In this document: piece after piece, positions 2,626 through 28,797 of the stretch
Layout of the letters: each line of letters starts with the position of its first letter
Numbering within the stretch: the stretch's first letter is position 1
Source: a phage
Sequence record: PX969468.1
Strand: one strand, 5' to 3'
Length of the DNA: 64,000 nt
The notes under the pieces: model-generated
The model's database searches: none
The model's input: only the letters and a program-made list of their open reading frames with translations
Told to the model about the DNA's origin: nothing
Translations under genes and position numbers: made by a program

Positions 2626-2632
2626 CAGTAAA

Positions 2633-2660
2633 GCCCCGCTTCGGCGGGGTTTATTTTTAT
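2633..2660 (+). terminator. Intrinsic terminator
   Basis: CCCCGC-TTCG-GCGGGG hairpin followed by TTTATTTTTAT. Confidence 0.75.
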
Positions 2661-2667
2661 GCTCGGA

Positions 2668-2696
2668 TTGACTATTGTTACAAAATTTGGTAAAAT
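2668..2696 (+). promoter_or_regulatory. sigma70-like promoter
   Basis: TTGACT, 17-nt spacer, TAAAAT; upstream of GGAGG RBS and GTG start at 2730. Confidence 0.6.
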
Positions 2697-2729
2697 ACCT
2701 TGTAGAGATTTTCATACCGGAGGAGTGAC

Positions 2730-4220: not shown

Positions 4221-4231
4221 GGCGGTGAGAT

Positions 4232-4918
4232 ATGGCAGAGATTAAGTCGGATGTCAACCACATCCACACTCTGCCAGATTTTGTTCAGGGAGGTCTTGAT
4301 TACCTGCCTGGGGATTTTCTGGCTGAGAAGGTTAATTTAGTCACATTCTTAACCGTGTACCTTAAAAGGTTGGAGAATGTTGATAAAATACTGGTAGGCT
4401 TGGCTGAAGGAAGATTGCTTAACAATGCCAGCGGGAGATACCTTGACGAAGTTGGTAATCAACTTGGTATCCTTAGGAATGGTCTTTCAGACGCGGATTT
4501 TCGTGCTACGCTGATTATTCAGCAGGCAGCATCATCAAGAGGTGGTACTCGCGAAGATGTCATCTCCACCTTACGACAGTTGTTCGGAAGAGATAATTTC
4601 GATACGTGGAAAGGTGACAATTTCAGGTTTGACATAAACATTAGAAAAACTTGCTTTGACATATTGCAGTCTATCGACCAGATCTTAGATATGCTGCCAT
4701 TGCCTTGTCATTTGCGTCTTACGGAATCGCAAGGGCAAGCTTTTGGTTTTGAAGGGGACTCTGCAGCTCTCGGCTTCGGATCAGTGTGGGAAGAAAACCA
4801 GTTCGGGGTTGGTGGGTTGGCTACTTTGTTATATGTTCCTGACGTAAGACCTGATTGGGACACCACAACTATTTATTGTGAAAGTATTACAGTAAACGCA
4901 ACTAGACAGGAGGGTTAA
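4232..4918 (+). CDS. Structural-module protein, function unknown
   Basis: 228-aa ORF, RBS GGCGGTGAG; stop overlaps next start (TAATG). Confidence 0.55.
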   Translation: MAEIKSDVNHIHTLPDFVQGGLDYLPGDFLAEKVNLVTFLTVYLKRLENVDKILVGLAEGRLLNNASGRYLDEVGNQLGILRNGLSDADFRATLIIQQAASSRGGTREDVISTLRQLFGRDNFDTWKGDNFRFDINIRKTCFDILQSIDQILDMLPLPCHLRLTESQGQAFGFEGDSAALGFGSVWEENQFGVGGLATLLYVPDVRPDWDTTTIYCESITVNATRQEG

Positions 4919-6990: not shown

Positions 6991-7002
6991 TCAGGAGATA
7001 AA

Positions 7003-8043
7003 ATGTCAAAACCTAGTTTTCCATTAGAGATTTGGGCAGAGGAGGATCAGGTTCTGCCTAACACCCACAGACAGAACAGGCTACGCCCGATTGATGATTT
7101 GTGGAGAAAAGGTTGGGATCTTGGTCAAAAGCCCTCATGTGAAGAACTTAACTATATTTTCAATATGCTCGGAACTTGGGCAAAATACATTGCTGACGAG
7201 CAGATCCCCGCTCAAGAAGGCCGTTATCTGGTACGCGATAATAACTTGAGTGATCTTTTGAACATCCCTGTTGCCCGTAGAAACCTTGGGATTATTACTA
7301 AGGAAGAGGCAGACGCCAGGTATGTAAAAGTTACAGGTGATACAATGACAGGCCCATTGGGTTTGCAACGTATCAACTTTAAAGCTGCCGAGACAGACAG
7401 GGCTTGGATAGAGACAACTATTGGCCCAGATAAGACAACTCTCGACTTTGGGTTAAGTGATAATATTGGGTCGTTTGATGATGGTGGTACATCTACAGTA
7501 GATGCGTTTCGTTGGAGATTTCAGCCAACTCAGCCGGATATCAATCCGGAGTTCACTTTGATGTACCTTAACGCGATCACGGCTAACCGTGCGCTGTTGA
7601 AAGTGGTAGGCAATGTTGAAGTTGTCGATAACATGAGGTGCAATAACCTTACTATTAGCAATACAGCAACATTCACCAACTGTAATGTGGCTAGTCAGTT
7701 GACGGCTGGGTCAGTGTATGTTAATGGTGGTACAAGTTGTGACAGTATGGTTGTAAGAAGTCAGCACTGTGTTGTCGGTAACAGAAATGTGGTGCGCTCT
7801 GTAAATGGAGTGACGGCTAACGGTAACGGTGATGTAACAATCACTATCCCGCAGACAGGTGTGCAAGACATCAGAATCGGTGCAAGACTTGTTGACGGCG
7901 TTTCCGAATCTCCAATTCGCAACGGCTACGTTGTCACAGGCTGGCATTTCGGTGACAAAAAAGAGATGCGTGGTTCAACCTACTGGGCAGGACCTTTACA
8001 AAAACTTGTAAATGGTCAATGGATCACTGTTAATTATGCATAG
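7003..8043 (+). CDS. Tail fibre protein (receptor-binding, P2 gpH-like C-terminus)
   Basis: 346 aa; C-terminus LQKLVNGQWITVNYA resembles recalled P2 gpH end (IQKYINGTWYNV); RBS AGGAGA. Confidence 0.7.
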   Translation: MSKPSFPLEIWAEEDQVLPNTHRQNRLRPIDDLWRKGWDLGQKPSCEELNYIFNMLGTWAKYIADEQIPAQEGRYLVRDNNLSDLLNIPVARRNLGIITKEEADARYVKVTGDTMTGPLGLQRINFKAAETDRAWIETTIGPDKTTLDFGLSDNIGSFDDGGTSTVDAFRWRFQPTQPDINPEFTLMYLNAITANRALLKVVGNVEVVDNMRCNNLTISNTATFTNCNVASQLTAGSVYVNGGTSCDSMVVRSQHCVVGNRNVVRSVNGVTANGNGDVTITIPQTGVQDIRIGARLVDGVSESPIRNGYVVTGWHFGDKKEMRGSTYWAGPLQKLVNGQWITVNYA

Positions 8044-8057
8044 ATCGGAGGACTAGC

Positions 8058-8642
8058 ATGAAAATACTTCAAGAGTTTAAACTTTACCAACCGGGATCTG
8101 GCGAATACCACGCCAACAAGGAAACCAAAGAGCTGACCCCTCAAGAGGTTGAGGATTACACCGCATACACTGGGTATTTTTTACGTAATGATGATGGCGA
8201 TTGGTATGTGCAGTCACGAACATTACGACAAGAAAATCCGGGTTGTATCTTCCTACTTGTTGACGAGAAGGGAATTCTTAAGACATCTACAGAAGAGCCT
8301 GATGCCTTATGGCCTGCTCCAGGTCTTCGTGTGGTTATCGCCAAAAAAGAAGAGGTACCAGAAAACATTATGCTTCACCACGACGCTTTGCGTTTAGTTG
8401 GTGATGAATTTGTCACAGATAATGAATTCTTTGTTCAACAGGCAGAGGGTGTCATAGAGACAGAACTTGCTTGGGCTACTGCTAGAATTGGTGCCTATCA
8501 AGACATGATTGACCTTGAATATGATCTTACTGATGACCAGAAACGTAACATCAGAGATTTGAAAATGTACAGGGTAAAACTTCTTGAAATAGATACATCT
8601 AAAGCCCCTGACATTTTCTTCCCGGAGCGACCTACCCTCTAA
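8058..8642 (+). CDS. Tail fibre assembly chaperone (Tfa family)
   Basis: 194 aa; C-terminal LKMYRVKLLEIDTSKAPDIFFPERP matches Tfa signature (YR..L..ID.S.AP....P..P). Confidence 0.7.
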   Translation: MKILQEFKLYQPGSGEYHANKETKELTPQEVEDYTAYTGYFLRNDDGDWYVQSRTLRQENPGCIFLLVDEKGILKTSTEEPDALWPAPGLRVVIAKKEEVPENIMLHHDALRLVGDEFVTDNEFFVQQAEGVIETELAWATARIGAYQDMIDLEYDLTDDQKRNIRDLKMYRVKLLEIDTSKAPDIFFPERPTL

Positions 8643-8653
8643 GAGGAGGTGTT

Positions 8654-8968
8654 GTGGAGTTGGATTTGGCGGCATTGTACGGTATCTGCATGGGTACCGT
8701 TGTCCCGATCTGTGTATGGGCTTTCAACCAGTGGCACACCAAATGGAAAGGCATTTCCAAGAGGTTGGATGAACTGGAGAAAGACCTCATCTTAGTGAAA
8801 AACAGTATGGTTACAAAAGATAAACTTGATTCCGTTATCGAGACCCGGTTAAGCAAGCTAGAGGCCGATATTAACGACCTTAAGCAGGATGTCAGGACAG
8901 ATGTCTCCGGCATCCGAGCTGATGTACAAAAGATTTTGCACATGCTTGTAGAGCATAGTAAAAGGTAA
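8654..8968 (+). CDS. Small protein with hydrophobic N-terminus and coiled-coil C-terminus
   Basis: 104-aa ORF, GTG start 4 nt after AAGAGGAGG; start uncertain. Confidence 0.45.
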   Translation: MELDLAALYGICMGTVVPICVWAFNQWHTKWKGISKRLDELEKDLILVKNSMVTKDKLDSVIETRLSKLEADINDLKQDVRTDVSGIRADVQKILHMLVEHSKR

Positions 8969-8998
8969 ACAAAGGTCAGGACGGAAAGGACTCCGTTC

Positions 8999-9027
8999 TT
9001 GCATTTTGTTTCCTAAAGTGTTAAAAT
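8999..9027 (+). promoter_or_regulatory. sigma70-like promoter between the two fibre cassettes
   Basis: TTGCAT, 17-nt spacer, TAAAAT; upstream of AGGAGA RBS and ATG 9058. Confidence 0.55.
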
Positions 9028-9057
9028 AGTCCTAAGGAATTTTCTCAGGAGAACGTG

Positions 9058-10101
9058 ATGACTAAACCAGTTATCCCTCTTGATATTTGGGCCAATCAGG
9101 ATGTTGTGCTTGAAAATACGGGAGAATTGAATAAGTCTCAACCAAAAAAAGAAGAGAGATTGAAAGGTTGGGATATGACACAAAGAGTGGCATGTGAAGT
9201 TGTTAACTTTGAACTTCACATGCTTTCTGCGTGGTTAAAGCATTTAACAGAAGATGTTGTCCCAGGATGGGATAATAGATTCTTAAGGGTCACTAATAAT
9301 CTAGCAGACGTTCCAGACAAAGCTGCTGCACGTCAAGTTCTCAATGTATACTCGCCTGAAGAAATGGACGATCTGTATGTTGACAAGTCTGGAGACATAA
9401 TGACTCAGACTCAAACTTTAGGCCTTCAAAGAATCGAGTTTGCATCTGCGTCAACAGACAATGCGGCAATATATACCACCATAACCTCAGACAAGACGAT
9501 GATGGATTTCTGGATTATGGACAACATCGGTGGTGCTGACGGCACAGATCTTGATGATCCTTCTCACCAAATAGACGGGTTCCGTTGGAGATTTCAGCCT
9601 TCTGGTGGGCAGCCTGTGTTTTCGGCTATGAAGCTCAATGCTATAACTGCCAACCGTGCAAGACTGGCTATTCAAGGAAATCTTGAATGCAACGATGCAA
9701 AAAGTTCCTCTGCAAATGCCAATGCAGTTACTATACCAAGAGCCACTGTTAATGGTCAACAATCCTGTGGAAGCGCTCAAATAGGTGGAAGAGTTGATTG
9801 TAACGATGAAACCGTCAGGGGCCAATATGCAACAGTTGGTGGAAGAAACGTGGTCCGTAGGGTAAATGGTAACAGCGCAGACGGTAGTGGTAACCTTACT
9901 ATTCCTATGCCTAGTAGGGGTGTTGAAGATGTAAGGATAGCAAACCGTTTCAGAACCACCTACAGAGAATCAAGAGTATACCCTGGGCATGTAATGTGCT
10001 CCGGCAATTACGCCTATAAACACCCGTATCAGGGCGACTATTGGACTGGAGCCATTCAAAAATTTGTAAATGGTCAATGGATCACTATATCTTATGCTTA
10101 A
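9058..10101 (+). CDS. Tail fibre protein, paralog of 7003-8043
   Basis: Conserved N-terminus (P.IPLDIWA..D.VL.NT...KGWD) and C-terminus (IQKFVNGQWITISYA) shared with 7003-8043; central part divergent. Confidence 0.7.
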   Translation: MTKPVIPLDIWANQDVVLENTGELNKSQPKKEERLKGWDMTQRVACEVVNFELHMLSAWLKHLTEDVVPGWDNRFLRVTNNLADVPDKAAARQVLNVYSPEEMDDLYVDKSGDIMTQTQTLGLQRIEFASASTDNAAIYTTITSDKTMMDFWIMDNIGGADGTDLDDPSHQIDGFRWRFQPSGGQPVFSAMKLNAITANRARLAIQGNLECNDAKSSSANANAVTIPRATVNGQQSCGSAQIGGRVDCNDETVRGQYATVGGRNVVRRVNGNSADGSGNLTIPMPSRGVEDVRIANRFRTTYRESRVYPGHVMCSGNYAYKHPYQGDYWTGAIQKFVNGQWITISYA

Positions 10102-10112
10102 AAAGAGGGTAA

Positions 10113-10379
10113 ATGAAATTAACTCAGTTTTTATGGGGGTTGGTTGCAGCATCTGATGACCCTACGAAAGTGTCCCAATCTAAGCTATGGTCAAACATAG
10201 GCATGGCAGTGATGACTGGGGTGTTTATTCATATGGGGTACAATGATACGCTTCCTGAATGGTATGCGTGGATATATGCACCTTCAGTAGCCTGCCCCCA
10301 GCTTATTAGCAAATTCATCTCGCTCCGGTGGGGTTGCCAGCACCCTGACCACGTTAAAAACGAAGAGCAAAAAGCTTAA
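10113..10379 (+). CDS. Hypothetical protein (88 aa) downstream of second fibre
   Basis: ORF with hydrophobic stretch; position equivalent to a fibre accessory gene but no Tfa motif. Confidence 0.45.
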   Translation: MKLTQFLWGLVAASDDPTKVSQSKLWSNIGMAVMTGVFIHMGYNDTLPEWYAWIYAPSVACPQLISKFISLRWGCQHPDHVKNEEQKA

Positions 10380-10388
10380 GGAGAAATC

Positions 10389-12134
10389 ATGGCGCAAGAC
10401 ATGACAAGCTTCGAGCAGGCGGTAGATCAAGTAATTGTTGATTCTGAACGTTTGCACTTGATTGTCAACGGTAACGCTGTGGATGAAGTTGTCGTAGAGG
10501 ATGGGACCACCATCCCTACGGTACGAAAAGCCATGCTTGACACCCTTTATTTTAAAACGCCACCAATCCCTTGGGCGTATGGTGCATCCACAACAGTTTT
10601 TAACCAGTTGTATGAGTTTAAAGGGGATACAGGCACTCAGTGGTGGTATGCCCCAGCAGCATCAAAATCTAACCCGGTTAGGATGCCAGCAGATCCTTCA
10701 CAATCTCCGAACTGGAGATTATATACCGATTCTGCAGTAATGGCAAAATACTACGCAAAACTTAACAGTCCAAGGTTCGAAGGTGACCCGAGAGCACCTA
10801 CACCTCCAATGGACGATAAGTCCGAGTCTATAGCAAACACAGAGTTTGTTGTTGACTATGTGGATAGTATATTCAAAGCCATGGAGGGGATGAAAGTAAC
10901 TGTAGGGTCTTTGGTAGTAAAAGGTCTTACAGAACTGGCTAACACCATAGTTGGTGGCACCCTTACCATACACGGGCCTGTTAATGGAGCGGATTCTACT
11001 GCACGCTTCAGGAACCTAATCCTTACTGCAAATACTTCTACACTAACTTTTGCGTGGAGCGATCCTAAGCATGCCGACTGGAGAAGCACAGAGCTGCAAC
11101 CTCATGAAGTATCCACCCACAGAGTTATAGCCGACACTATAACCTCTGGGAAACCAGTGGCTAATAACAACGATGTGCATTTTGACGGTCTAGGTAATAA
11201 CTTTTTTGACTACGTGTACATTCGTGGTAATGCCATGAAGGCAGCAACCGAACCGACATTGCAGGTCGATGGGACCACTAGGGTTAAGAACCTTGAGGTG
11301 ACAGGTACCGTTACAGGGATAACCTACTCTGTCGATGGCACCATGATCTACCCTAGCTATATTGAAAGCACGGGTGACGCATTAATAAATGGTGATTTGG
11401 AGGTTGGCGGGTCTGTAGTTATTCGAGGTACGGCCTCTATCCAAAACATAGCTCTGAATACTCTCAGAGTCAATGAGCGTGCAACTTTTGAAGGAGAAGG
11501 GCTTACAGCCAACAAAGGTGTAATTACCGAGCTGACAACCACCACTTTAACTGCAACAACTGCAAACTCTGAAAACTGCAACGTTACCAGAAACTTGCAG
11601 GTAAATGGGGATGTTAGTTTAAACGCAGCAGGTACGGGCACCACCTACCTTCACAACCTTGAAATATCCGGCACAGTGACTGGTTGGCTGCCAGACTTCT
11701 CTAATGTCAACTTTGTCTGTAATGGTATTAACTCTAGTGGTAAGATAACCACCTCTCAAGAAATTGAGGCTGGTAAAACCATCACTGCCCCTACTTTCCA
11801 CGCAGGGAAGGTAGATTTCGATTTAGAGGAGGTTGACGCGTCCAGTGGGACATGGACACCTAACGGGCAGGCCAGTATGTATGTTGTCCACGCTAAAGGG
11901 GATTTTACAATAGGCCAATGGCCTGGAACATCGGCTGAAGATAAACCTTACCCGTTTACTGCAATCATCTATGTCATTCAAGATGCCGTAGGCCACAACG
12001 TGACTTTGCACGATAAATATGCCATACTGTCGGCTACCCCTGTTATTAACAACAAAGCCAACAGCGTCACCTTGCTACAATTGACATATTGTGGTGTTGG
12101 TGATATCGTAGATGTGGTTATTGCACAACGTTAA
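10389..12134 (+). CDS. Tail fibre protein
   Basis: 581 aa, Thr/Gly/Asn-rich beta-type repeats (LEVTGTVTGITYSVDG..), RBS AAGGAGA. Confidence 0.65.
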   Translation: MAQDMTSFEQAVDQVIVDSERLHLIVNGNAVDEVVVEDGTTIPTVRKAMLDTLYFKTPPIPWAYGASTTVFNQLYEFKGDTGTQWWYAPAASKSNPVRMPADPSQSPNWRLYTDSAVMAKYYAKLNSPRFEGDPRAPTPPMDDKSESIANTEFVVDYVDSIFKAMEGMKVTVGSLVVKGLTELANTIVGGTLTIHGPVNGADSTARFRNLILTANTSTLTFAWSDPKHADWRSTELQPHEVSTHRVIADTITSGKPVANNNDVHFDGLGNNFFDYVYIRGNAMKAATEPTLQVDGTTRVKNLEVTGTVTGITYSVDGTMIYPSYIESTGDALINGDLEVGGSVVIRGTASIQNIALNTLRVNERATFEGEGLTANKGVITELTTTTLTATTANSENCNVTRNLQVNGDVSLNAAGTGTTYLHNLEISGTVTGWLPDFSNVNFVCNGINSSGKITTSQEIEAGKTITAPTFHAGKVDFDLEEVDASSGTWTPNGQASMYVVHAKGDFTIGQWPGTSAEDKPYPFTAIIYVIQDAVGHNVTLHDKYAILSATPVINNKANSVTLLQLTYCGVGDIVDVVIAQR

Positions 12135-12142
12135 TATATCTG

Positions 12143-12170
12143 ACCGCTCCTGACGGGGCGGTTTTCTTAT
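12143..12170 (+). terminator. Intrinsic terminator
   Basis: ACCGCTCC-TGAC-GGGGCGGT hairpin followed by TTTCTTAT. Confidence 0.65.
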
Positions 12171-12182
12171 CTGGAGAACACA

Positions 12183-15100
12183 ATGCTTCCAATCCCTTTG
12201 CTAAAACTTGGTCGTCATTTCCTCGATAAGAGGGGTGGAGTTAAGGAACTTGCTGTTCTGTCATACCCAATAGACAACAGTGACGGTACAAGCACTACAG
12301 TGCCATATGTAAATAGCTTAGCCATACTTTTTGACGACGGTCAACTCAATATTACAGGTTACAACAGGTTCGGGGAGTGCAGGACTGGAGATCTTGACAC
12401 GATAAACTACCCAAATGAGGCTGCCTGGAACGTTGATCATGTGTGGAGAGCAGACCGTGCGTTTGTGATCCGAACTTTTGATAATCAGTTTTTCTACATC
12501 GGCTGCACTGCAGGGCTTATTGGATCTGATGCTGCAGGTGGTAATGATGTTTGTGTAAGGGAGTGGACACCTCTTCCTGAACAGATTGTTAAAGGGTTGC
12601 ACCTTGACACCCACCCGGAGCGCCTTGTTGAGGTGATGGGTGGTATTAACAACACTGTCTGGGTTATTGCAGAGGCAGAAGGCACAGGCATACTGAATCT
12701 GTATGGGTCTGGTAACAACACCTACGGATCTTTGCATGTAGATAAAAATCAGCATGCAACCCCTGTAAAGATCGGTGAGACATCGGAAAATCCTGAAACA
12801 GGCCCTTGGAAAAACCCAAGCATTAACTGCGAGGTGCATGACAACTCTGTTATTTTCGGTGGTCCTAGAGGTTTCTGGATTGCTGGATACGACTTTCTGA
12901 GAAATAACAGTAGAAACGACCTTGTTTGGCCTCCTGTGCAGATTACTCGTAACGATTTGAGAGGCATTCCTGCAGATGAGGAGTGGAAAGGGTTTATGTG
13001 TGGTCCTAACGGGGCAATAATTGCCACACAGAGGATGCACAAACCTAATGACCAGCAGCTTGTTAACGTATTCTACGGGCAAGACGTCTGGGGAGATGAC
13101 ACATGGCGTTCCTTAAATATCACCTACACCCATGAGGTGATAATGGCTCGTGGATACGGCACAAGTGGCATTTTCTTCAATAATGGCACTAAGCAGTATC
13201 GTGGGTTCTCTCGCAACTTGTGTAATGATATTGGTGCACAATCTGCAAACAATAGCCCTAGGGCCAATTTTATCCACTATCAAGCTCTTGCTACAGCTAA
13301 ATATGTTGAGCAACGCCTGCCAGTTAGCTGGACAGAGAGTGTTTATTTCCAAGGCATCCACAGAGAAGGTTTCTTAGGGACCTTTACTGTTGTTAATGGT
13401 AAACTTTGGTGGTCAGGCATCCCGAGGGGAAGTTTTGCAGGATCTAACAACCTGTTTGGCGGCAGACTTAATAGTCAGGGGTTCACAGAGGTTCCTGAGA
13501 ATTGGTATAAAAATGTCCCAGTAGACAGTTGGGGTGTTGATGATATTTTCGATGTTAACGGTGTTAGCAGCGTTAGCAATATCTACATTGGTGACACGGT
13601 CAAGATGAAACTGAAGCCTCAGCCAGAGGGGGCTACGTTCATTATTGACAAAATTGAACTGGTAAATGCTGCAGGCACGGTTGTTACAGATGCAAATTAC
13701 CAATTCTCCACCAACTGGAACCACGGTGGGGCCAACGAAGTTGTTGTTACCCAATATAACAGAAATGTTAACAGACGTGGACTGTACTCTGTAAAAATAA
13801 CCTATCATGACAAACATGGCACAGGCAGAACCCACACAACAAGGACTTTGAACTGGAACACTATCGTCCCAGCGTACCCGTCTGATGGTAAATGGCATAC
13901 TGTCGGTAGAAACAAACAGTTCCATGTCAACGATACTGTATACTTTGGGTTGAATGCCGCCCAGCCTGCAGTAGAAGGGGATACATCGTATATGGTCAGA
14001 CTCCATAGAATGGATGCTGGATCAGTAACTTATGATGTTACTCAAGAGATTTATAATCAGCGACGAAATACCTATGATAACTTGGTGCAGACACAGGCCT
14101 TATGGGAGTTCAACCCAAACGGCAGAGGTGGTAAAATGTTGCAGGTCAATGAACAAAACTGGACATCGTTGACTGTTCACGAACACCAAAACCCTTGGCC
14201 TGATCCTGGAAAACCTAACTCTGGTGCTCGTACACTGAAAATTGTCAGCCATGATGTAGGGTATTTCGGAATACGCTGGGAAGCTACAGTAAGATATGCT
14301 GATGGGACAACAAACAACATAGGGATCACTCTTGGTGGCACTAGTGAGGATAACTCACTGAAAATTGCCTACACCCCTAGAGGCATCTCTATTGACAATA
14401 TGGATGTTGTTCGCAACGGTTACGGCGATGTGAATGTCAAAGTTACTCTTGGCGAACATCTTGGTGGGGAAAGGATCATCATGTATGCCTTTGATCATGA
14501 CCCTCGCACCAATGGAACCTATGCAGACCAAGCATGGAGTTACCTGATAAGCGCACCTGAGCCAAATACTAAAGAATTCTACTATGGTATGAAGCGAGAT
14601 GTGTGCAAGAAAACAGGAACACATGACTGGATTGCTATCTGCGTTAAAGATGAGCGCACAGCTTGGGATGAGCCTGTTAACAGATGGTTCATAGGTATTC
14701 CTACCAGAAGTGATAAGTATGTCGCAGAGTATATTGTATGCATGGGCGGTACCAACCTGAACATGTGTTGGAACGAAGATGTAAACAAATACTCTGATTA
14801 TGACTATATGAGGGATTACTCTTGCAATCTGTGGTTTAACCAAACTACAGGTTACCCTCCGCGTCAGGCAAGGGTAAATCCTGCAATCTTTACAGATACT
14901 CAGGTTTTCTTGACAAAACAGGCCAACGAGGTTCAGACCTTCAAGAATAAATACGATCCTAACAAGTGGTTCTACAACTGTTACGGCGCATTTTTCTGGG
15001 GCCCTGGTGAGTTACCTGGTGGAGGATCTTGCTTGAATGAGGCAACTTACGCCAGTGACTACATCATGGGGCAGGTCAAGAAGTATAAGATAATTCCCGG

Positions 15101-21793: not shown

Positions 21794-22059
21794 TACTCTT
21801 CCTCCATAGTTTCACCAAATACTTCGATACGAGCATCGAGCTCGGTTGCTTTCAGCTCCCCAACAAAATCTTTTAGTTCTTTCTCGTCCAGATCGTAAGC
21901 CCACACACAAGAAGAACATGCAGATTTCACAATCAGCAGCGTAGATATACGGCCTGACTCCGTGATCATGCTCACAATGGTTCCTACAGGGAACGTGTTG
22001 ATAGCTTTTTTAACTGGGCGTTCAGCTTTGATTACTACCTCTGTTGCCATAAATAACAT
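21793..22059 (-). CDS. Hypothetical protein (88 aa)
   Basis: ORF. Confidence 0.45.
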   Translation of the reverse strand: MLFMATEVVIKAERPVKKAINTFPVGTIVSMITESGRISTLLIVKSACSSCVWAYDLDEKELKDFVGELKATELDARIEVFGETMEEE

Positions 22060-22065
22060 CCTCTC

Positions 22066-23559
22066 TTACTTAGCGTACTCGATTAATTCCACAGTTTTCC
22101 CAAAGCTCGGAATATAATTTTTATTATACCCTTCGGTGAGAACCCATAGAGTATCGTACTTTTTCCACTTGTTGTCAACAGCCTTTTGTTCAAAGTTATG
22201 CTCAAAGTATAGGTCGGTCAGGACGATGACATCTTTTGCATTCGGTATGTTAGCATCCAGATACTCGAACACGCAAGCAGCTGTTGTGCCCCATGTTGAG
22301 TGGACCTCATAGTTGATCATCTCGTCTATGTTGCCGCGAGTGTATACTTTAACCTCTCCAACCTCAGTTGACCAACAGAACATTGTAACCTTAAACTCTT
22401 TATACAGATTGCACAATCCTGTGATTTCATTGAACATTTTCTTTAAAGTTCTTTGAGAGATCGAGCCAGAAACGTCCAAAGCCACCACAATATCTATAGT
22501 GTTTTCCGGATTACGACCAGGAACAATAACGTGTTGGTTCTTGTTTATAGCTCCGACTTTTCGCATTGTGCTGGTCAAAGACCCAGATCGGCGACCAGGT
22601 TTTCTGTAGGTCAGTTCGGCCTTTCTTTTAGACAACATACGCTGCTTGATGATGTCTATATAATTGATTACAGGCTTACCTCTATTCTTGACAAACTCAC
22701 GAACCGCCTCAGGGCAACGACCTCCGGAAGCTTGCATTGCTGCCTCAAGCATGTCACCAGAGTCCTGCATGGCCTGATCTTTATCAGATTGGCTGATTAC
22801 AGGTTGTGGCTGATCATACCCCATCGCCTTTCCAAGATCATCACTAGTGCCACCGTTACCACTCATGTGATCGTCGGTTTGTCGTTTATCTCCTTGAGAG
22901 TTCTCGCCTTTACCGTTCTTACTTTTACCGCTATTCTGATCTCTTTGCTTATCAAGAACCGCATAGACGTTCTCAGCAATCCATCCATGGAACCTCATGT
23001 CACAGTAGCAACTAGCTAAGAAGCCAAAAGACTTACCTTTTACAAACGTAGTGCTTTTCCCCTTCGGGAAGAAAACACAAGGGGGCTTGCTAAAGTCAAC
23101 CACAAGACCTGTGTTGATAACATGATCACAGGCAATATTGAACAGCTCCGGCTCAAAACTTTTGCCACGGACCAGATGATCACAGATAATATGCCCCACC
23201 TCATGCGATAGAAGAAATGCCACCTCTTTCACAGATTTTGGGGAATAGAAAACCTCAGCCATCTCAAACTGCTTGTCAGTCAAAGATGCTTTAAGAATGG
23301 TTTTGCGCTCATCCGCCAATCCCATAATGAACTCAGGGCTGTAATAAATGCGTTTATGGTCTGTTGCCATGGTGGAGCACCATGTGTGGTTTTCTACGAA
23401 CTGCAACCCTGACAACAGTGTGCCATAAAACGGCAGTTTTTCAAGAAGATACATACGTGCTGCCTGCAGCATTCGCAAGGCGTCATCTTTTTGTGCGGCA
23501 ATGATTTCTGAACTTCTGCTATCCATTAAAACTCCAGAAGGGGCCTTGGCCCCTGTCAT
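22066..23559 (-). CDS. vWA-domain protein with N-terminal HExxH metallopeptidase-like domain
   Basis: HEVGH motif (LLSHEVGHIICDH) and MIDAS DxSxS (VVALDVSGSIS). Confidence 0.7.
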   Translation of the reverse strand: MTGAKAPSGVLMDSRSSEIIAAQKDDALRMLQAARMYLLEKLPFYGTLLSGLQFVENHTWCSTMATDHKRIYYSPEFIMGLADERKTILKASLTDKQFEMAEVFYSPKSVKEVAFLLSHEVGHIICDHLVRGKSFEPELFNIACDHVINTGLVVDFSKPPCVFFPKGKSTTFVKGKSFGFLASCYCDMRFHGWIAENVYAVLDKQRDQNSGKSKNGKGENSQGDKRQTDDHMSGNGGTSDDLGKAMGYDQPQPVISQSDKDQAMQDSGDMLEAAMQASGGRCPEAVREFVKNRGKPVINYIDIIKQRMLSKRKAELTYRKPGRRSGSLTSTMRKVGAINKNQHVIVPGRNPENTIDIVVALDVSGSISQRTLKKMFNEITGLCNLYKEFKVTMFCWSTEVGEVKVYTRGNIDEMINYEVHSTWGTTAACVFEYLDANIPNAKDVIVLTDLYFEHNFEQKAVDNKWKKYDTLWVLTEGYNKNYIPSFGKTVELIEYAK

Positions 23560-24611
23560 TATTTAACGTGCTTGAAAATACCAGCCAACTCGGTCATTGT
23601 CATGCGGGTGGTCTTCATAAGGTCTGTCATAGCCTTCTCCATAATTGGAGATACTACCATAAAGTTACCTTTGGTGAAACCTTTATTCCAATCGGTCACT
23701 AATAGTGGTTTAAGTCCGGTCCCGAGACGCTCACCAGTTAAAGCACAACATTTTCGAATATACGTGCTCTTAAACTGACTGAATGACAGATCAACTTTCA
23801 TACCTGCATCGTAGAACGTCTGGCAATAGAAAGTGTAAGCTTTGGCAATCTCAACATCGTCAGGCAGTGCAGGAACCTCTTCTGTAAGCTCTTCTTCGGC
23901 CTCTTGAGGCTCTTTTTCCTCTTCGTGATCCTGTTGCATCATTTCTTCAATCTCTTCTGTTACAGGCTCATTTACGATGTCAGAAATGTGCTTGTTGGCT
24001 CCACGATTAGCCATGAAGTTTTTAAAATCCTGCATTGGTGACATATCTTCCTCCCATTCTTCGTCAAAGAGTGCTAGTTTATCCTCTTCCGTTCCATATT
24101 GCAAGATGAAATCTTCAAAAGTGTAATCACCTTTCAATTTCTCCATACGCTCTTCGCTCAGGTGGAGCATCATCTGCTGGACAATTTTTCGATCAGTTTT
24201 GTCTTTAATCAAGACTGCGGTCTTTTTATCTACCAGACAGTCCTTTAGAGAGTTGCATCTCAATCCCACCACACAACAATTATCAACAGCATAAGGACCT
24301 TCATCATCTATCCGCTCTAGGGAGGGGTAGAAAGGATTTCCCAGTCCGTTTTCATCTGTGTGCATGTCGAAAGGTATAAGGGTATAGTCGCACACCCCCT
24401 CTCCTAAAAGTTTTTTACCAAATAGGAGGTATTCTTCCCATGACAGGTTGAACTCTATATCTCGTTTCCGTGCATTATTTTGTTTGCGTCTGTATTTTTT
24501 GAGCAAGCGCTCTAACTCTTCTGGTGTATAATATTTTTCAAGATTCATGAGTTGTCTCTCGTGCTCTGTAAGTGAAGAAATCTTATCAATTGTCTCAACA
24601 GATGTCAACAT
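23559..24611 (-). CDS. HNH endonuclease-like protein (possibly degenerate), acidic central linker
   Basis: ARKRDIEFNLSWEEY and KVDLSFSQF repeats, IRKCCALTG..DWNKGFTKGNF resembles HNH_3 core but lacks terminal Cys pair. Confidence 0.4.
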   Translation of the reverse strand: MLTSVETIDKISSLTEHERQLMNLEKYYTPEELERLLKKYRRKQNNARKRDIEFNLSWEEYLLFGKKLLGEGVCDYTLIPFDMHTDENGLGNPFYPSLERIDDEGPYAVDNCCVVGLRCNSLKDCLVDKKTAVLIKDKTDRKIVQQMMLHLSEERMEKLKGDYTFEDFILQYGTEEDKLALFDEEWEEDMSPMQDFKNFMANRGANKHISDIVNEPVTEEIEEMMQQDHEEEKEPQEAEEELTEEVPALPDDVEIAKAYTFYCQTFYDAGMKVDLSFSQFKSTYIRKCCALTGERLGTGLKPLLVTDWNKGFTKGNFMVVSPIMEKAMTDLMKTTRMTMTELAGIFKHVK

Positions 24612-24621
24612 CAAAAACGTG

Positions 24622-24650
24622 TTGACTTTACTCTAAATCTCCGATATAGT
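24622..24650 (+). promoter_or_regulatory. sigma70-like promoter for + strand module, in divergent intergenic region
   Basis: TTGACT, 17-nt spacer, TATAGT. Confidence 0.65.
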
Positions 24651-24690
24651 GCACCCATTCGAAAGAAAACTAACATAGGAGCACTCACTC

Positions 24691-25590
24691 ATGGCAAATC
24701 TTAACAGTTTTAGTACGCGGTGGAAACAGGACATAACAACCAATCTTTCAGCTGGGGACATCCTTTCTGCAATTTACGAGGCTTTAGATGATAAAGCTAC
24801 TTCAAAAGCGGTTTGTACCAACCCACTAATTCCTATAGTGATGAAGGTGATTGAGCGTAGATTGGTATCGGGGTCTGATAAGTGGACATATTTAGATAAT
24901 GAAGGACACACCTATTCCAACGGGTATGTCGATATAAAAGTAGAATACGCGGTATCATACCGCCGGAGCGGTTCTGTGACTTTCAACTTTTCTGGAGGTT
25001 TTCGATCTCTGGCAACTTCACCTTTTGTTTCCTCAGAAGAGAAGTTTGAACTTCCGTTCCTTTGGATGATGGCTAACGCGACAGGAAAAACCCCCGTGAG
25101 CATTCGCGTAAAATACAACTACAACGGGTCCAGTAAGATCTATGCCGAGAGTATCTCAGCAAGTTTTTATTTTGTGATGGGGGATGGAATCCTCAAGCAC
25201 ATAAAGATGTGCGATATGCATGATGTTATAAATGAAGTGACTGATAAGAATGTTTTAGTGAAGGACCTCAACAATTTCTATACACCTGGGGACTATTACG
25301 TCAACCGCCCACTGTGCATCTTTAATGCCGCACACCCTTTAGGTGAATACCTGATCGTTAATAGTGACATTGCTAACAACATTTTTGAACTGGCAAGAGT
25401 ACAAAATGAGGTATTGACATCCTGCAAAAGTGGTGATAAATTTACTGATGAAGAGATGGGTGTTTTAGAAATGATGGGGTATAAATGCAGTCTTTGGGTA
25501 GATGAGGTGTTTAATGACTACATCTACGGACAGGATATTTACCCGTTAAAGAAGTATACTGATACAAGTTTAATTTATGCGGGGATTTGA
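24691..25590 (+). CDS. Hypothetical protein (299 aa), first gene of + strand module
   Basis: ORF with RBS AGGAG. Confidence 0.55.
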   Translation: MANLNSFSTRWKQDITTNLSAGDILSAIYEALDDKATSKAVCTNPLIPIVMKVIERRLVSGSDKWTYLDNEGHTYSNGYVDIKVEYAVSYRRSGSVTFNFSGGFRSLATSPFVSSEEKFELPFLWMMANATGKTPVSIRVKYNYNGSSKIYAESISASFYFVMGDGILKHIKMCDMHDVINEVTDKNVLVKDLNNFYTPGDYYVNRPLCIFNAAHPLGEYLIVNSDIANNIFELARVQNEVLTSCKSGDKFTDEEMGVLEMMGYKCSLWVDEVFNDYIYGQDIYPLKKYTDTSLIYAGI

Positions 25591-25865
25591 CTATGATGAA
25601 GGCATGTGGTAATGTATATTACGTCGGTGAGCATGTTCAGGCAGACAGTGTGTGGAAATCTATTAAGTCCACCACTGACGATGCCTTTCTGAGTGGACTA
25701 TGTTTCCCCAATCCGGGAGACATCCTCCCTCACCCTGGAGATTTTGTTATCAACAAGATGGACGGTTATACCGTGTGCCTGATGGTTGAGAAAATCTTTT
25801 TAGACACTAGGCACAATCACCGTCTTGTGTTAAAATTTCAAGAATGTAAAATGACAATTGCCTAA
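25587..25865 (+). CDS. Hypothetical protein (92 aa)
   Basis: ORF overlapping upstream stop. Confidence 0.4.
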   Translation: MTMMKACGNVYYVGEHVQADSVWKSIKSTTDDAFLSGLCFPNPGDILPHPGDFVINKMDGYTVCLMVEKIFLDTRHNHRLVLKFQECKMTIA

Positions 25866-25878
25866 GGAGGCCTTACCT

Positions 25879-26235
25879 ATGTCTAAAGTTACTTATCGTG
25901 CAGCTATTTACTGCAATGAACACCCAATCAATAATGATGGTCACTGCCTTTTTAAAGAAAATCAGTTGGGCTGTATTGTCCTACCTGATGAAGGGGAAGG
26001 TTATCTGATTGCATTGACAGGGTTTGAGCCTGAAGCTCTGGAAGCCAATCTGGACTACCTGGTAGAAGAGGGTGCTGCAGACCTGGTTGCTAATGGCCTC
26101 TCCGTAAGCCTTGACGAAGTGGAGCGCTTCATGGGCAATTACCGTGTAGTGCGGGAGTTTACTATCGATGTGGAAACTCCAGAGTGGGGTAGCACTGAAA
26201 CTAATGCCGAAGAAAAAGAAGAGGAGGTAGAATAA
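25879..26235 (+). CDS. Hypothetical protein (118 aa), acidic C-terminus
   Basis: ATG 8 nt after AAGGAGG; track start 25858 is an in-frame TTG. Confidence 0.45.
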   Translation: MSKVTYRAAIYCNEHPINNDGHCLFKENQLGCIVLPDEGEGYLIALTGFEPEALEANLDYLVEEGAADLVANGLSVSLDEVERFMGNYRVVREFTIDVETPEWGSTETNAEEKEEEVE

Positions 26236-26492
26236 TGAAAGTACAGATCTTGACTAATGCCGAGAAGATGTTTATTGAAGATACACCTTTTGAAGCTGGT
26301 GAGCTACAGTTTGTTTATTTTGTTGACTTAGATAAGGTGTTTCCTGCACTGAATCTGGGTCTGGATGAAGTTCCTCATAAGGTTTTGTGCCAAGTTGTTC
26401 GTGCCTTAGCGGCAGAGGGGGAGTTCCGCACCCTTCAAGATGTCCAGACCTACGGGTATCTTGAACTACAACGAGAAGAAGAGGTGGACTGA
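26235..26492 (+). CDS. Hypothetical protein (85 aa)
   Basis: ORF, ATGA overlap with upstream gene. Confidence 0.45.
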   Translation: MKVQILTNAEKMFIEDTPFEAGELQFVYFVDLDKVFPALNLGLDEVPHKVLCQVVRALAAEGEFRTLQDVQTYGYLELQREEEVD

Positions 26493-26494
26493 TA

Positions 26495-26875
26495 ATGGCA
26501 CGGTGGAAGACAACAGTTGACCTTCATGATCAGTGGTTAGGACGCATCACTGAAGACGGGAAACTAGTGGAGTGGGACAATAAGCATGTTAGCGAGTTGG
26601 CAAGCATTGTGGCTGGCAAGTTACGCTCCAAGTTCCCTGAACAACTGGATCCTGATAATTCAAAGTTCGATCCTGAGTTGGAGGATGTTGTATACTACTT
26701 CGATACCGTGGATGACTACGATGCGTGGTTTGCAGCACGAGAGCTTTACCCACAAGGCTCTGCTATGCGCCAGATGGAAGAAGATTATCCTCCGTGCGAG
26801 CAATTTAATAGCGCAATGACTTGCCTCTACGATTGGGCAGATAAGAACCTTGTCTGGATTCGGACTGCATTCTAG
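26495..26875 (+). CDS. Hypothetical protein (126 aa)
   Basis: ORF. Confidence 0.45.
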   Translation: MARWKTTVDLHDQWLGRITEDGKLVEWDNKHVSELASIVAGKLRSKFPEQLDPDNSKFDPELEDVVYYFDTVDDYDAWFAARELYPQGSAMRQMEEDYPPCEQFNSAMTCLYDWADKNLVWIRTAF

Positions 26876-26881
26876 CAGGTA

Positions 26882-27184
26882 GTGGCAAGGATGCCACTTA
26901 AAAGAGTAATAAACATGTTATACCAGAAACACGAACTTTGTGCAGAAAAAGAGTTAAATTTTGACAAAGTTATCCACAGATATTGTTATGGAAAAACCGG
27001 AAGACAACTAAGAAGATGCACTCCAGCATTCTTTCACCCCAGCAGGCGGCTAAGTCCTGAAGAGGCGACAGCAGAAAGGGTTGCATACAACTGGGAAGTT
27101 GTGTACGATATTGACAGATCCGATGTGACATCTGTTTTGGAAAACTTTGAAAACACTTACACACAAGTAGAGGATTTTTACTAA
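26882..27184 (+). CDS. Hypothetical protein (about 100 aa), start uncertain
   Basis: ORF; weak RBS. Confidence 0.4.
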   Translation: MARMPLKRVINMLYQKHELCAEKELNFDKVIHRYCYGKTGRQLRRCTPAFFHPSRRLSPEEATAERVAYNWEVVYDIDRSDVTSVLENFENTYTQVEDFY

Positions 27185-28368
27185 TGTCAAGAAACGTATT
27201 TGAAAGTGGTCAAATCACTGTCCGTGAGTTGCCAGCTATCATTCAGTTTGCCCAGCGTCATAACCGATCTGTCCTGATTTTAGGACCAATGGGTGTGGGA
27301 AAGAGTCAGGTGATGAAGCAGATCGCTGATAATATGTTCGGTGAGCGAGATGACAACCTGGTTGACGTGCGGCTGTCAGATAAAGATCCTGCCGACTTAT
27401 CTGGGCTACCTATCCCTGTAGAAGCTGATGGAACTACACGTACAGTGTTTGCAATTCCAGAATTTTGGCCTGCAGATCCGAACTGGAGCGGAATTATCTT
27501 TCTGGATGAGCTTACTCATGCAGATAACTATCTGCAAAAGGTTGCAATGCAGATTATGCTCGACCACAAGTGCGGCACCTATGCATTCCCTAAAGGCTCT
27601 GTTTTTGTGGCTGCGGGTAACCGTTCTACAGATGGTGCTGTTCTTTCGGCGCTCGAAGCTCCTCTGGCTAACCGCTTTATCATTGTAGAGGTTACAAGCA
27701 ATGCAGAGGTGTTTATTGAGGACTACGCATTCCTCAACGGGGTTCACTCCTCTGTAATTGGGTATCTGAAAAGAGTTCCATCAGCTATTGATAATTATGA
27801 GGCTATGGCTGAGATTAATTGTCCATCTTTTGCCACACCACGATCTTGGGTTGCTGCATCTGACATCTTGCACGATTTTGACAGCGGTATTATTTCTGAC
27901 GCTATGGCCCGTGTTCTTCTGCAAGGTGCTATTGGTCACACTGCAGCGGTAGAGATCTGGACCTACCACACCAAGAAACGCAACTTACCGGAAATCGGTC
28001 GGATTATGGCAGGGGGTTGCAAAGAATACGTAGGTCCTAAACAGCCAGACATCTTGTGGATTCTTGGATCTGAAGGTTGTATCGCTATTCGTAATATGAT
28101 GGAAAATGCAAGTATCTCCGACGAAGATCTTGTTAGCTGTGTGGCAAACTTCCTCGATTTCCTTTGGGAAAACTTCAAGGACGAGAACCGAGATTTTGTA
28201 TTCTCAGTCTTTATGGCGATGATGAAACCTAATGCCTTAGGAAATGCCTTGCTTATCGGTAAAGGTCGTGACAAGATTGTTGCTCAGCTGATCAAAGCAT
28301 ACCCAAACCTGATGAAGATTGTAAAAGAGTTTGGTGAAGAGTTTAGCGCCATTTTGGCTAAAGCTTAA
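27184..28368 (+). CDS. MoxR-like AAA+ ATPase
   Basis: Walker A LILGPMGVGKS, Walker B IIFLDELTHA. Confidence 0.75.
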   Translation: MSRNVFESGQITVRELPAIIQFAQRHNRSVLILGPMGVGKSQVMKQIADNMFGERDDNLVDVRLSDKDPADLSGLPIPVEADGTTRTVFAIPEFWPADPNWSGIIFLDELTHADNYLQKVAMQIMLDHKCGTYAFPKGSVFVAAGNRSTDGAVLSALEAPLANRFIIVEVTSNAEVFIEDYAFLNGVHSSVIGYLKRVPSAIDNYEAMAEINCPSFATPRSWVAASDILHDFDSGIISDAMARVLLQGAIGHTAAVEIWTYHTKKRNLPEIGRIMAGGCKEYVGPKQPDILWILGSEGCIAIRNMMENASISDEDLVSCVANFLDFLWENFKDENRDFVFSVFMAMMKPNALGNALLIGKGRDKIVAQLIKAYPNLMKIVKEFGEEFSAILAKA

Positions 28369-28377
28369 GGAGGTTGT

Positions 28378-28758
28378 ATGGCTAAAGTAGGTAAGCGGGG
28401 AAACTACCTGGTGGTATTGACCGAGGAGCCGGAGAAGGAGTACGAATGCAGCTCCACTTGCGTGATCGATATCCGAGAAAAAGATGTAGATGAAATCTGG
28501 TTTAAAATATTGGACGCTTGCGATAGCAGTGATTATTTCTTCATCTATGTCAACGATAAGGCTGGGTTCTTCCATGACGACGGAGAGTTGCCGTATGAAA
28601 TCTATGAACTTGTAGAGGCTTGCCATCGTGGAGATGCGGAGTTGTTTGGCCTACGGCTGAAAAGCGGTAAATTCTTCTATCAAGATGAGTGCATGAATCT
28701 TCATAACTTTGTAGAGGGAACTTGCAACGATGGAGAGATTTTGGCACACTACGATTAA
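28378..28758 (+). CDS. Hypothetical protein (126 aa)
   Basis: ORF with RBS AAGGAGG. Confidence 0.45.
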   Translation: MAKVGKRGNYLVVLTEEPEKEYECSSTCVIDIREKDVDEIWFKILDACDSSDYFFIYVNDKAGFFHDDGELPYEIYELVEACHRGDAELFGLRLKSGKFFYQDECMNLHNFVEGTCNDGEILAHYD

Positions 28759-28769
28759 TTTCTAATACC

Positions 28770-28797
28770 ACCCCGCTTCGGCGGGGATTTTCTATTT
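28770..28797 (+). terminator. Intrinsic terminator (same stem as 2633-2660)
   Basis: CCCCGC-TTCG-GCGGGG followed by ATTTTCTATTT. Confidence 0.7.

Follow-up and report, generated by a model that had tools for sequence, protein, structure and literature searches.

Do a MoxR-type ATPase and a metallopeptidase-like vWA protein work together when their genes lie on opposite strands of a phage genome, and what would such a pair do for the phage? The question is raised by a stretch of 64,000 nucleotides (record PX969468.1, hereafter the window) from a Vequintavirus, an rV5-like coliphage (95–97% nucleotide identity) that is a non-jumbo myovirus with a genome of roughly 137 kb. Both open reading frames are present at the coordinates listed in the table, and they correspond to gp4 (previously annotated "MoxR ATPase") and gp12 of rV5. 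The pair is a rediscovery of one already annotated and published. The evidence strongly supports the view that the two genes are a functionally linked pair of a known kind, in an unusual arrangement.

Table. Features of the two genes and their surroundings (window coordinates; motifs are given with the protein that carries them).
Feature	Position	Strand	Remarks
Putative zincin metallopeptidase + vWA protein (rV5 gp12, N4 gp25 homologue)	22066..23559	-	497 aa
vWA protein, MIDAS TD	22213-22218	-	D449 in MIDAS set
vWA protein, MIDAS GT	22285-22290	-	T425 in MIDAS set
vWA protein, MIDAS DxSGS	22462-22476	-	DVSGS
vWA protein, conserved NIACDHVIN	23113-23139	-	
vWA protein, HExxHxxxxH	23176-23205	-	HEVGHIICDH
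Srd-like (anti-sigma/sigma-70 decoy-like) gene, 5' of vWA gene	23559..24614	-	phrog_3118, phrog_4592, phrog_1400
Back-to-back sigma-70-like promoter candidates	24580..24650	.	consensus matches only
Sigma-70-like site	24608->24580	-	TTGACA-17-TAAGAT with TG
Sigma-70-like site	24622->24650	+	TTGACT-17-TATAGT
MoxR-class AAA+ ATPase (rV5 gp4, N4 gp24 homologue)	27184..28368	+	394 aa; phrog_1297, 9e-111
ATPase, Walker A	27283-27306	+	GPMGVGKS
ATPase, conserved putative H2-insert segment	27364-27405	+	
ATPase, Walker B	27493-27510	+	IIFLDE
ATPase, sensor-1 NR	27619-27624	+	N146
ATPase, R-finger	27664-27678	+	LANRF (R164)
ATPase, sensor-2 TPR	27835-27843	+	R220
Intrinsic-terminator-like hairpin	28771..28796	+	6 G-C pairs, then T-run

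The Walker motifs noted in the preliminary description are indeed present in the ATPase and, like sensor 1, the arginine finger, and sensor 2, they are intact: G37, G39, K40, S41, D108, E109, N146, R164, and R220 show no variation among 38 homologues. The MoxR assignment made there fails as a direct Pfam match but stands by other routes. The protein is below the gathering scores of AAA_5 (PF07728; 16.8 bits, cut-off 22), bpMoxR (15.3 bits, cut-off 27), and all other AAA models, and AAA_3 (PF07726) is not reported for it in the Pfam search. On the other hand, its homologues at E about 1e-44 bear AAA_3, AAA_5, and bpMoxR, the family profile matches the AAA_5 modules of midasin (1.4e-10), and the predicted model (pLDDT 84) has NorQ and CbbQ2 at ranks 1–17 of a Foldseek search against the PDB (E 7e-8 to 7e-6; TM-score normalised to target 0.58–0.66), with cso-CbbQ also among the matches. 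Hence, the MoxR-class assignment is supported. The predicted model places a hairpin (E75–81/E84–90), a candidate for the β-hairpin insert of helix 2, between β2 and β3 and a short EE--EE element (129–135), a candidate pre-sensor-1 hairpin, before β4, and it has an additional helical C-terminal domain of about 125 aa after the lid.

The partner had been described as an HExxH N-domain joined to a vWA MIDAS motif, which is correct. DUF2201_N (PF13203; 99 bits versus a cut-off of 23.2, E 4.7e-28, residues 99–325) is followed, in N-to-C order, by the VWA-like DUF2201 (PF09967; 43.7 bits versus 26.4, E 3.7e-11, residues 357–492), both above the gathering score. The HExxH motif and the full MIDAS set show no variation among 21 homologues, with H119, E120, H123, and H128 invariant. 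The C-domain carries the DxSxS...T...D signature on a Rossmann-like vWA fold, and it is matched by the VWA domain of NorD. The N-domain is a putative zinc peptidase. Because the matches listed include no solved structure that resembles this zincin domain, and its only sequence matches, to M48-type peptidases, are non-significant, the case for peptidase activity is one of motif conservation. The start of the gene is most likely ATG 23526 (Met12), since a GGAG precedes it by 8 nt, Met12 does not vary among homologues, and the product annotated in phage nom has 486 aa; ATG 23559 has no Shine-Dalgarno sequence. The PHROG label of this protein, "HNH endonuclease" (phrog_1314), was rejected, as there is no HNH Pfam match and the zincin and vWA domains cover the protein. 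It is a mistake of annotation that RefSeq records have taken over, and this recurrent mislabel in RefSeq/PHROG-based annotation should be corrected.

The proposal that the two products are functional partners is supported by gene co-occurrence. Among 80 viral ATPase loci, 67 have the vWA gene directly downstream on the same strand; the other 13 comprise 10 cut by contig ends, 1 without a vWA gene, and 2 with the genes split. Adjacency and co-direction are thus found in 67 of the 70 informative loci (the 80 minus those cut by contig ends), and in tblastn searches both proteins have almost the same number of records per host genus, which strongly supports a functional partnership. The MAG loci with enough downstream sequence show the genes adjacent in 9 out of 9 cases (L089–L097; L088 ends too soon). 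Both genes occur in each of N4, RaK2, Internexus, S-TIM5, and CRP-7, and the hosts of the pair range from cyanobacteria to Bacillus. The two split loci among the 80 are those of Vequintavirus type, with the genes on opposite strands and about 3.6 kb apart. A relative at 53% identity (L009) is split as in the window, and one at 36% identity (L010) retains adjacency; hence, the split is derived, and it is the exception, not the rule. Both genes are under strong purifying selection (dN/dS 0.014–0.033; ATPase 0.014–0.017, vWA gene 0.033).

The preliminary description had the two genes split across a divergent promoter at 24.6 kb. They do lie on opposite sides of it, but neither abuts the divergent gap (24615–24690): the ATPase gene is the seventh of the plus-strand unit, and the vWA gene is the second of the minus-strand unit, after the Srd-like gene. 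The latter is shared with the 53%-identical relative and probably starts at ATG 24545, downstream of the promoter. The gap has two back-to-back promoter matches at 10/12 positions, whose -35 boxes form the arms of an inverted repeat (24604–24626); over the whole region, promoter-like matches are no commoner than in shuffles (15 versus 13.4 ± 3.6). The rV5 record has promoter features, and bidirectional promoters have been reported at the same place (PMC3606486). The hairpin probably ends the plus-strand unit that holds the ATPase gene and the next gene (28378–28758). Co-regulation without co-transcription, as had been suggested, is plausible, because both genes belong to non-late units leaving a bidirectional sigma-70-type promoter.

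The gene context of the pair points, as a correlation, to early or middle expression and nucleotide metabolism rather than to morphogenesis. In N4, it includes dCTP deaminase, thymidylate synthase, and rIIA/B; in the metagenomic clade, a 5'–3' exonuclease and ThyA; and td is near the pair in RaK2, as is ThyX in S-TIM5 and gyrase B in Internexus. Of 49 informative loci, only 27 have thymidylate synthase in the vicinity, and most of the loci sampled come from a single clade.

We consider it rather likely that the two gene products make up a single ATP-driven machine for protein remodelling and processing, of the N4 gp24/gp25 type, that this machine is intracellular and of early or middle timing, and that its genes derive from an ancestral operon that was split. 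The ATPase would assemble as a MoxR-type hexameric ring, on which the C-terminal vWA domain of the partner would dock, its MIDAS site and/or N-terminal domain holding a specific client protein. ATP hydrolysis would then twist or stretch the adaptor, as in NorQ-NorD, and this would bring the client to the fused HExxH zincin domain or render it open to cleavage there. The docking model is borrowed from cryo-EM work on NorQD, whose authors presume finger-in-pore docking to be general (PMC13036017). Since the compact predicted vWA model has no obvious NorD-like finger, the docking mode may differ. The machine would be made early or in mid-infection, not late, and would most likely act inside the cell rather than as a virion component, on a client with a part in DNA or nucleotide metabolism or in host takeover. 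In Vequintavirus and close relatives, a rearrangement would have broken the ATPase-to-vWA operon and left the two genes on opposite strands, both presumably still being read outward from one bidirectional early promoter region.

Homologues of both proteins are also found in cells. In five out of five Clostridia-type loci, an operon runs from an SF2 helicase through MoxR to DUF2201, with overlapping or abutting genes. Its ATPase and DUF2201_N+DUF2201 proteins are homologous to the phage pair (HMM E 1e-72 and 1e-120), and its third component is an SNF2/ResIII-type helicase of roughly 1,100–1,260 aa that neither the window nor any of the phage loci examined contains. The operon is not a recognised defence system, and it is apparently so far undescribed. 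It is conceivable, though unlikely, that the gp24/gp25 module is the phage two-gene core of a cellular helicase-MoxR-zincin/vWA system acting on nucleic-acid-bound proteins, in which the AAA+ ring and the MIDAS adaptor would pull a protein off DNA or RNA and the zincin would cut it, for clearing or processing on the host or phage genome in early or mid-infection. SPRTN/Wss1 with p97 would be the functional analogue. If so, the Vequintavirus split would show that the parts need only co-expression, not co-translation.

Three further explanations bear on the role of the pair. For group 2.2 jumbo phages with this very architecture, Iyer et al. (2021; PMC7824862) explicitly proposed a virion-assembly chaperone that would aid the folding and assembly of head or tail proteins, the metallopeptidase trimming structural proteins in maturation; an analogy is provided by Acidianus two-tailed virus, in which tail development requires MoxR/vWA proteins. 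The core-gene status of the pair in N4-like phages fits an essential morphogenetic role. In S-TIM5, the neighbours of the pair, Hsp20 directly upstream and a "virion structural" gene downstream, agree with an assembly chaperone just as well as with the early, DNA-linked role; RaK2 has a head completion protein about 5 kb upstream, and RPP1 a mid-phase second structural module near the gp24/25 homologues. However, the N4 genes are middle transcripts amid nucleotide-metabolism genes, and gp4 and gp12 of rV5 are outside the late/morphogenesis unit, genes 27–66 (PMC3606486). The carrier lineages (podoviruses, myoviruses, and jumbo phages) have no virion type in common, and the cellular relatives build no virion and are linked to an SF2 helicase instead. 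The absence of gp4 and gp12 from the virion proteins listed for rV5 speaks only weakly against it, since chaperones are not packaged. An assembly role appears rather unlikely.

A host-takeover or counter-defence protease, which would act early in infection by recognising and cleaving a host protein (e.g., a defence, nucleoid, or transcription factor), is in our view quite unlikely, although it agrees with the early/middle placement and with the co-transcription of the split-lineage vWA gene with an Srd-like anti-sigma/decoy gene. Cellular MoxR-vWA-peptidase systems recur in conflict systems (PMC7159879; PMC12839542). In N4 as well as in rV5, rIIA/rIIB lie near the pair. Genes for counter-defence tend to be patchy and to evolve fast, whereas these are Schitoviridae core genes and highly conserved here (dN/dS ≤ 0.033); neither protein has a PADLOC match, and a host range from cyanobacteria to Bacillus argues against a host-specific target. 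It is very improbable that the partnership has ended in the window lineage, with independent roles after the split or one gene decaying. The location on opposite strands, 3.6 kb apart, would allow this, and in at least one phage, Vibrio Va1, a relative of the ATPase lacks a partner within 6 kb. Yet every catalytic residue is retained in both proteins, purifying selection is strong on both genes, and they are kept together in all of the 100+ Vequintavirus records as well as in the split-type relatives at 53% identity.

Genes of the gp24/gp25 type belong to the Schitoviridae core and recur in Vequintavirinae, RaK2/PA5oct-type jumbo phages, S-TIM5, and Bacillus jumbo phages. In the searchable literature, no experiment on such proteins from any phage was found. 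Phages of the rV5-like and N4-like groups are common in cocktails, and a conserved, apparently essential, putative ATP-driven protease or remodeller is a gap in the biology of therapy and biocontrol phages. The rV5-like phages, which infect E. coli K-12, offer a tractable system, where the natural split permits deletion and complementation of each gene separately without polar effects.

Several known systems resemble the pair to different degrees. Midasin/Rea1 has an AAA_5 ring with an in-cis MIDAS domain but is a giant eukaryotic factor for ribosome assembly, made of a single chain and lacking a peptidase. The MoxR-vWA-VMAP/iSTAND ternary conflict system (Kaur et al. 2020) was rejected, as phage loci have no third conserved partner (VMAP or iSTAND), the ATPase is below the bpMoxR cut-off, and PADLOC gives no match. 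NorQ-NorD and CbbQ-CbbO likewise combine a ring ATPase with a vWA adaptor bearing an N-terminal client-binding domain, and they provide the best structural matches for the ATPase (NorQ/CbbQ), while the NorD VWA matches the partner's C-domain. Sequence identity to them is only 15–21%, the N-domain of NorD or CbbO is not a peptidase, and metalloenzymes (cNOR and Rubisco) serve as clients; the phage pair differs further in the NorD finger, not evident in its vWA model, and in the extra C-terminal helical domain of its ATPase. The closest relatives are gp24 and gp25 of N4, two of the 14 core genes of N4-like phages (Schitoviridae) and middle genes transcribed by the phage RNAPII (PMC4193335). They are direct homologues (tblastn identity 26% and 22%; family HMM E 1e-56 and 7e-79) with the same motifs and, for gp25, the same two-domain architecture, so that, judged by homology, the window pair is the rV5-type copy of this module. 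The homology does not extend to gene order: the N4 genes are adjacent and co-directional (9938–10996 and 11164–12306), ATPase before vWA, whereas those of the window are separated and behind host-type promoters. The Vequintavirus ATPase is also longer than gp24 by about 40 residues overall, with about 125 extra C-terminal residues past the AAA+ lid, and the vWA protein is longer than gp25 through insertions in the zincin domain. The same MoxR-vWA-metallopeptidase pair has been described in group 2.2 jumbo phages (Iyer et al. 2021, Viruses 13:63; PMC7824862); it shares architecture and family, as the gp24-like and gp25-like proteins of RaK2 match both queries, but was described for jumbo phages only, as adjacent genes and with a proposed virion-assembly role. 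The module is known from sequence already, and in the window it is, unusually, split onto opposite strands.

The region 22000–28400 of the window is 90–97% identical in nucleotide sequence to 122 phage records (94.7% for rV5), which identifies a Vequintavirus. The ATPase is the counterpart of rV5 ORF4, labelled "MoxR ATPase" in its record, and the zincin-vWA protein is the counterpart of rV5 ORF12/13, which the rV5 record calls "hypothetical" and that of phage nom "metallopeptidase"; they are homologs of gp24 and gp25 of phage N4, respectively. Gp24 and gp25 belong to the core set of 14 genes in N4-like phages, with the entries "Unknown" and "vWFA domain", and N4 transcribes them as middle genes (PMC4193335, PMC2784036). 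Both genes have been annotated before and the pair has been reported in the literature; the peculiarity of the window is the derived arrangement in which the pair is split. Literature searches on MoxR+DUF2201, DUF2201, rV5 MoxR, N4 gp24/gp25, and COG3864/PF13203 found no functional or experimental study, and the pair goes unmentioned in the PA5oct transcriptome preprint. Sixteen records filed as C. jejuni phages (MG0656xx; "Campylobacter phage" D1, A147, C5, and others) match the E. coli Vequintavirus region of the window at 95–96% identity, and the ATPase of D1 is 100% identical to that of the window, which suggests that this data set has mislabelled hosts or coliphage contamination.

The motifs reported in the preliminary description are real in both proteins, and their conservation goes well beyond chance. 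Walker A (GPMGVGKS), Walker B (IIFLDE), N146, R164, and R220 are invariant in 38 homologs of the ATPase, down to 31% identity. The HExxH and MIDAS motifs noticed in the partner are likewise intact, H119-E120-x-x-H123, H128, and the set D362-x-S364-G-S366, T425, and D449 being invariant in 21 homologs, down to 22% identity. Profile searches place DUF2201_N ("putative metallopeptidase", E = 4.7e-28) and DUF2201 ("VWA-like", E = 3.7e-11) in the partner, both above the curated Pfam cut-offs, whereas the ATPase alone misses every cut-off of Pfam and NCBIfam, with only subthreshold generic AAA matches. Among PDB sequences, phmmer finds only P-loop-local Clp matches for the ATPase and none for the partner. 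The MoxR-class label is nevertheless accepted, as an assignment of fold and clade for which the direct profile test failed, because three independent lines converge on it: homologs of ~360 aa that match the ATPase at E about 1e-44 carry bpMoxR, AAA_3, and AAA_5, the 17 best PDB matches of the AlphaFold model (pLDDT 84) are NorQ and CbbQ, and the family profile matches midasin AAA_5 modules at 1.4e-10. Affiliation with a different family was looked for and not found.

For the partner, ATG 23526 is the most likely start: a GGAG lies 8 nt before it and it encodes the invariant Met12, whereas ATG 23559 has neither feature. A G+C-rich palindrome (AGGGGCCTTGGCCCCT, 23539–23554) lies just upstream of the GGAG, in the stretch that separates the stop of the Srd-like gene from this probable start, and could serve in attenuation or in RNA stability. 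The label "HNH endonuclease" carried by the zincin-vWA family (phrog_1314, spread to RefSeq) has to be rejected, as no HNH domain is present. This misannotation is widespread, affecting the gene of the window, N4 gp25, and many RefSeq phage records, with "DNA repair ATPase" used once.

The two genes closely co-occur in phages. Among 80 IMG/VR loci recovered via the ATPase family, they are adjacent on the same strand in 67 and split on opposite strands in two; one locus lacks the partner and 10, at contig ends, are uninformative. An ATPase alignment search of genome contigs found 10 MAG loci, probably phage contigs binned with MAGs, of which nine have the adjacent same-strand arrangement and one is uninformative (contig end), none being split or without the partner. 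Stop-to-stop gaps in adjacent loci range from −58 to 548 nt. The pair is also adjacent in N4, RaK2, Internexus, and S-TIM5, and in CRP-7 the genes lie on the same strand 1.6 kb apart. The tblastn records per host genus run in parallel for ATPase and partner (Escherichia 214/214, Cronobacter 17/17, Achromobacter 17/17, Pectobacterium 26/26, Pseudomonas 108/104), the lower counts of the faster-evolving partner being at least in part an effect of sensitivity. A lack of co-occurrence is thus not what the genomes show, and the proposal of a functional pair, like the observation behind it, was essentially right. In Vibrio phage Va1, no partner was found within 6 kb of the gp24-like ATPase (HMM E = 9e-37), and a ClpP gene lies ~4 kb downstream; the partner may have been swapped or may be encoded elsewhere in the genome.

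Both split loci are of the Vequintavirus type, with the genes 3.6–3.85 kb apart. A locus with 53% identity (L009) has the arrangement of the window, down to the Srd-like gene that precedes the vWA gene, and one with 36% identity (L010, CR8/A5-4-type) keeps the ATPase→vWA adjacency; the split is the derived state. Strong purifying selection on both genes persisted after it (dN/dS against rV5 and nom: ATPase, 0.014–0.017; vWA gene, 0.033). The earlier suggestion that the pair flanks a divergent promoter holds in that the genes lie on opposite strands, in units diverging from the promoter region, but neither abuts the gap. The −35 boxes of the two opposed sigma-70-type sites form an inverted repeat. 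In rV5, bidirectional promoters are also reported at the same place, and the late genes (27–66) are sited elsewhere (PMC3606486). Because both units leave this bidirectional sigma-70-type region and the rV5 late genes lie elsewhere, the sequence makes co-regulation of the two genes plausible.

Coordinates of the features discussed, in the window and in comparison loci
Sequence	Feature	Coordinates	Strand	Remark
Window	vWA gene	22066–23559	−	gene 2 of minus-strand unit, behind Srd-like gene
Window	Srd-like gene	23559–24614	−	
Window	sigma-70-type promoter match	24608→24580	−	
Window	divergent gap	24615–24690		touched by neither gene
Window	sigma-70-type promoter match	24622→24650	+	
Window	first plus-unit gene	24691–25590	+	
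Window	100-aa ORF	26882–27184	+	
Window	ATPase	27184–28368	+	gene 7 of plus-strand unit
Window	strong hairpin	28771–28786	+	apparent end of plus-strand unit
N4 (L007)	gp25	3165–4307		
N4 (L007)	gp30 (thymidylate synthase)	5844–6785		
L003	ThyA	8578–9462		
RaK2 (L105)	td	9620–10549		
S-TIM5 (L107)	Hsp20	4524–4958		
S-TIM5 (L107)	ThyX	8667–9338		
Va1 (L108)	gp24-like ATPase	5947–7056		
L098	three-gene operon	616–6239		
L101	three-gene operon	543–6371		
L102	three-gene operon	1118–7455		
L103	three-gene operon	1579–7341		
L104	three-gene operon	1432–7356		

While phrog_3118 labels the Srd-like gene "HNH endonuclease", the gene also matches the PHROGs "Srd anti-sigma factor" and "decoy of host sigma70"; its product has an unusual acidic middle region (about residues 180–250). 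ATG 24545 is probably the true start of this gene, since the predicted promoter lies downstream of the TTG at 24614 that is given as the start. In rV5 records the gene that opens the plus-strand unit is called a "putative alpha 1-3 fucosyltransferase", an annotation that looks unsupported: it has no Pfam match and its only PHROG match is phrog_12338 (unknown function). The 100-aa ORF whose last base is shared with the ATPase start codon is named "ATPase" or "MoxR ATPase" in PHROGs and some records and is without an ATPase domain, the name probably having been copied from its neighbor. As a third partner this ORF (phrog_13164) is ruled out, being restricted to Vequintavirus.

Gene context argues for an early or middle role linked to DNA metabolism. 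The vicinity of the pair includes dCTP deaminase, thymidylate synthase, and rIIA/B in N4, a 5′-3′ exonuclease upstream and ThyA downstream in a metagenomic clade, and td (RaK2), ThyX (S-TIM5), or gyrase B (Internexus) in other lineages. In rV5 the pair belongs to nonlate units, and rIIA follows the ATPase unit at a distance of 1 kb. Four independent phage lineages have a thymidylate synthase 2–4 kb downstream of the pair, the S-TIM5 version being the nonhomologous ThyX. As an obligate neighbor it is ruled out, being within 6 kb in just 27 of 49 informative loci, and there is none close to the pair in the window.

Iyer et al. proposed instead that the pair acts in virion assembly with peptidolytic processing (PMC7824862), and the pair of cyanophage S-TIM5 is flanked by Hsp20 and a structural gene. 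This small heat-shock chaperone gene, immediately 5′ of the MoxR gene, is the one context favoring a chaperone or assembly role. Most loci sampled for context belong to one clade. Weighing the context evidence against the S-TIM5 flanks and this one-clade sampling, we therefore put first an intracellular remodeller-protease acting early or in the middle of infection, which is fairly probable for the machine as a whole and less so for the specific role; the assembly chaperone comes second and is rather unlikely. A protease directed at the host is more doubtful still, and a PADLOC defense-system scan of the phage proteins was negative. That the partnership has been lost is very improbable.

Cellular relatives are linked to a helicase. 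In all five sampled Clostridia-type loci, MoxR and DUF2201 genes follow an SF2/SNF2-like helicase gene in one operon of overlapping genes, coding for an SF2/SNF2-ResIII helicase of 1,076–1,263 aa, a MoxR ATPase of ~370 aa, and a DUF2201_N+DUF2201 protein, in neighborhoods that are otherwise housekeeping. No PADLOC or NCBIfam defense system matches the trio above threshold, PADLOC giving generic SNF2 matches only, and no helicase homolog was found in the window or in the phage loci. The literature search found no paper on this operon.

The closest guide to mechanism is NorQ-NorD, where cryo-EM shows the vWA domain seated on the concave face of the MoxR ring, with a finger in the pore, and ATP-driven rotation stretching the adaptor linker and remodelling the client; its authors presume this docking mode to be general (PMC13036017). 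Because of this analogy, one may propose that the vWA domain of the partner (rV5 gp12) would dock on a hexamer of the ATPase (rV5 gp4), that the client would be held by the MIDAS site and/or the N-domain of gp12, and that ATP hydrolysis would hand the client to the fused zincin, or activate the zincin. The predicted vWA model of gp12 is compact and shows no clear finger, so that its docking mode may differ from that of NorD.
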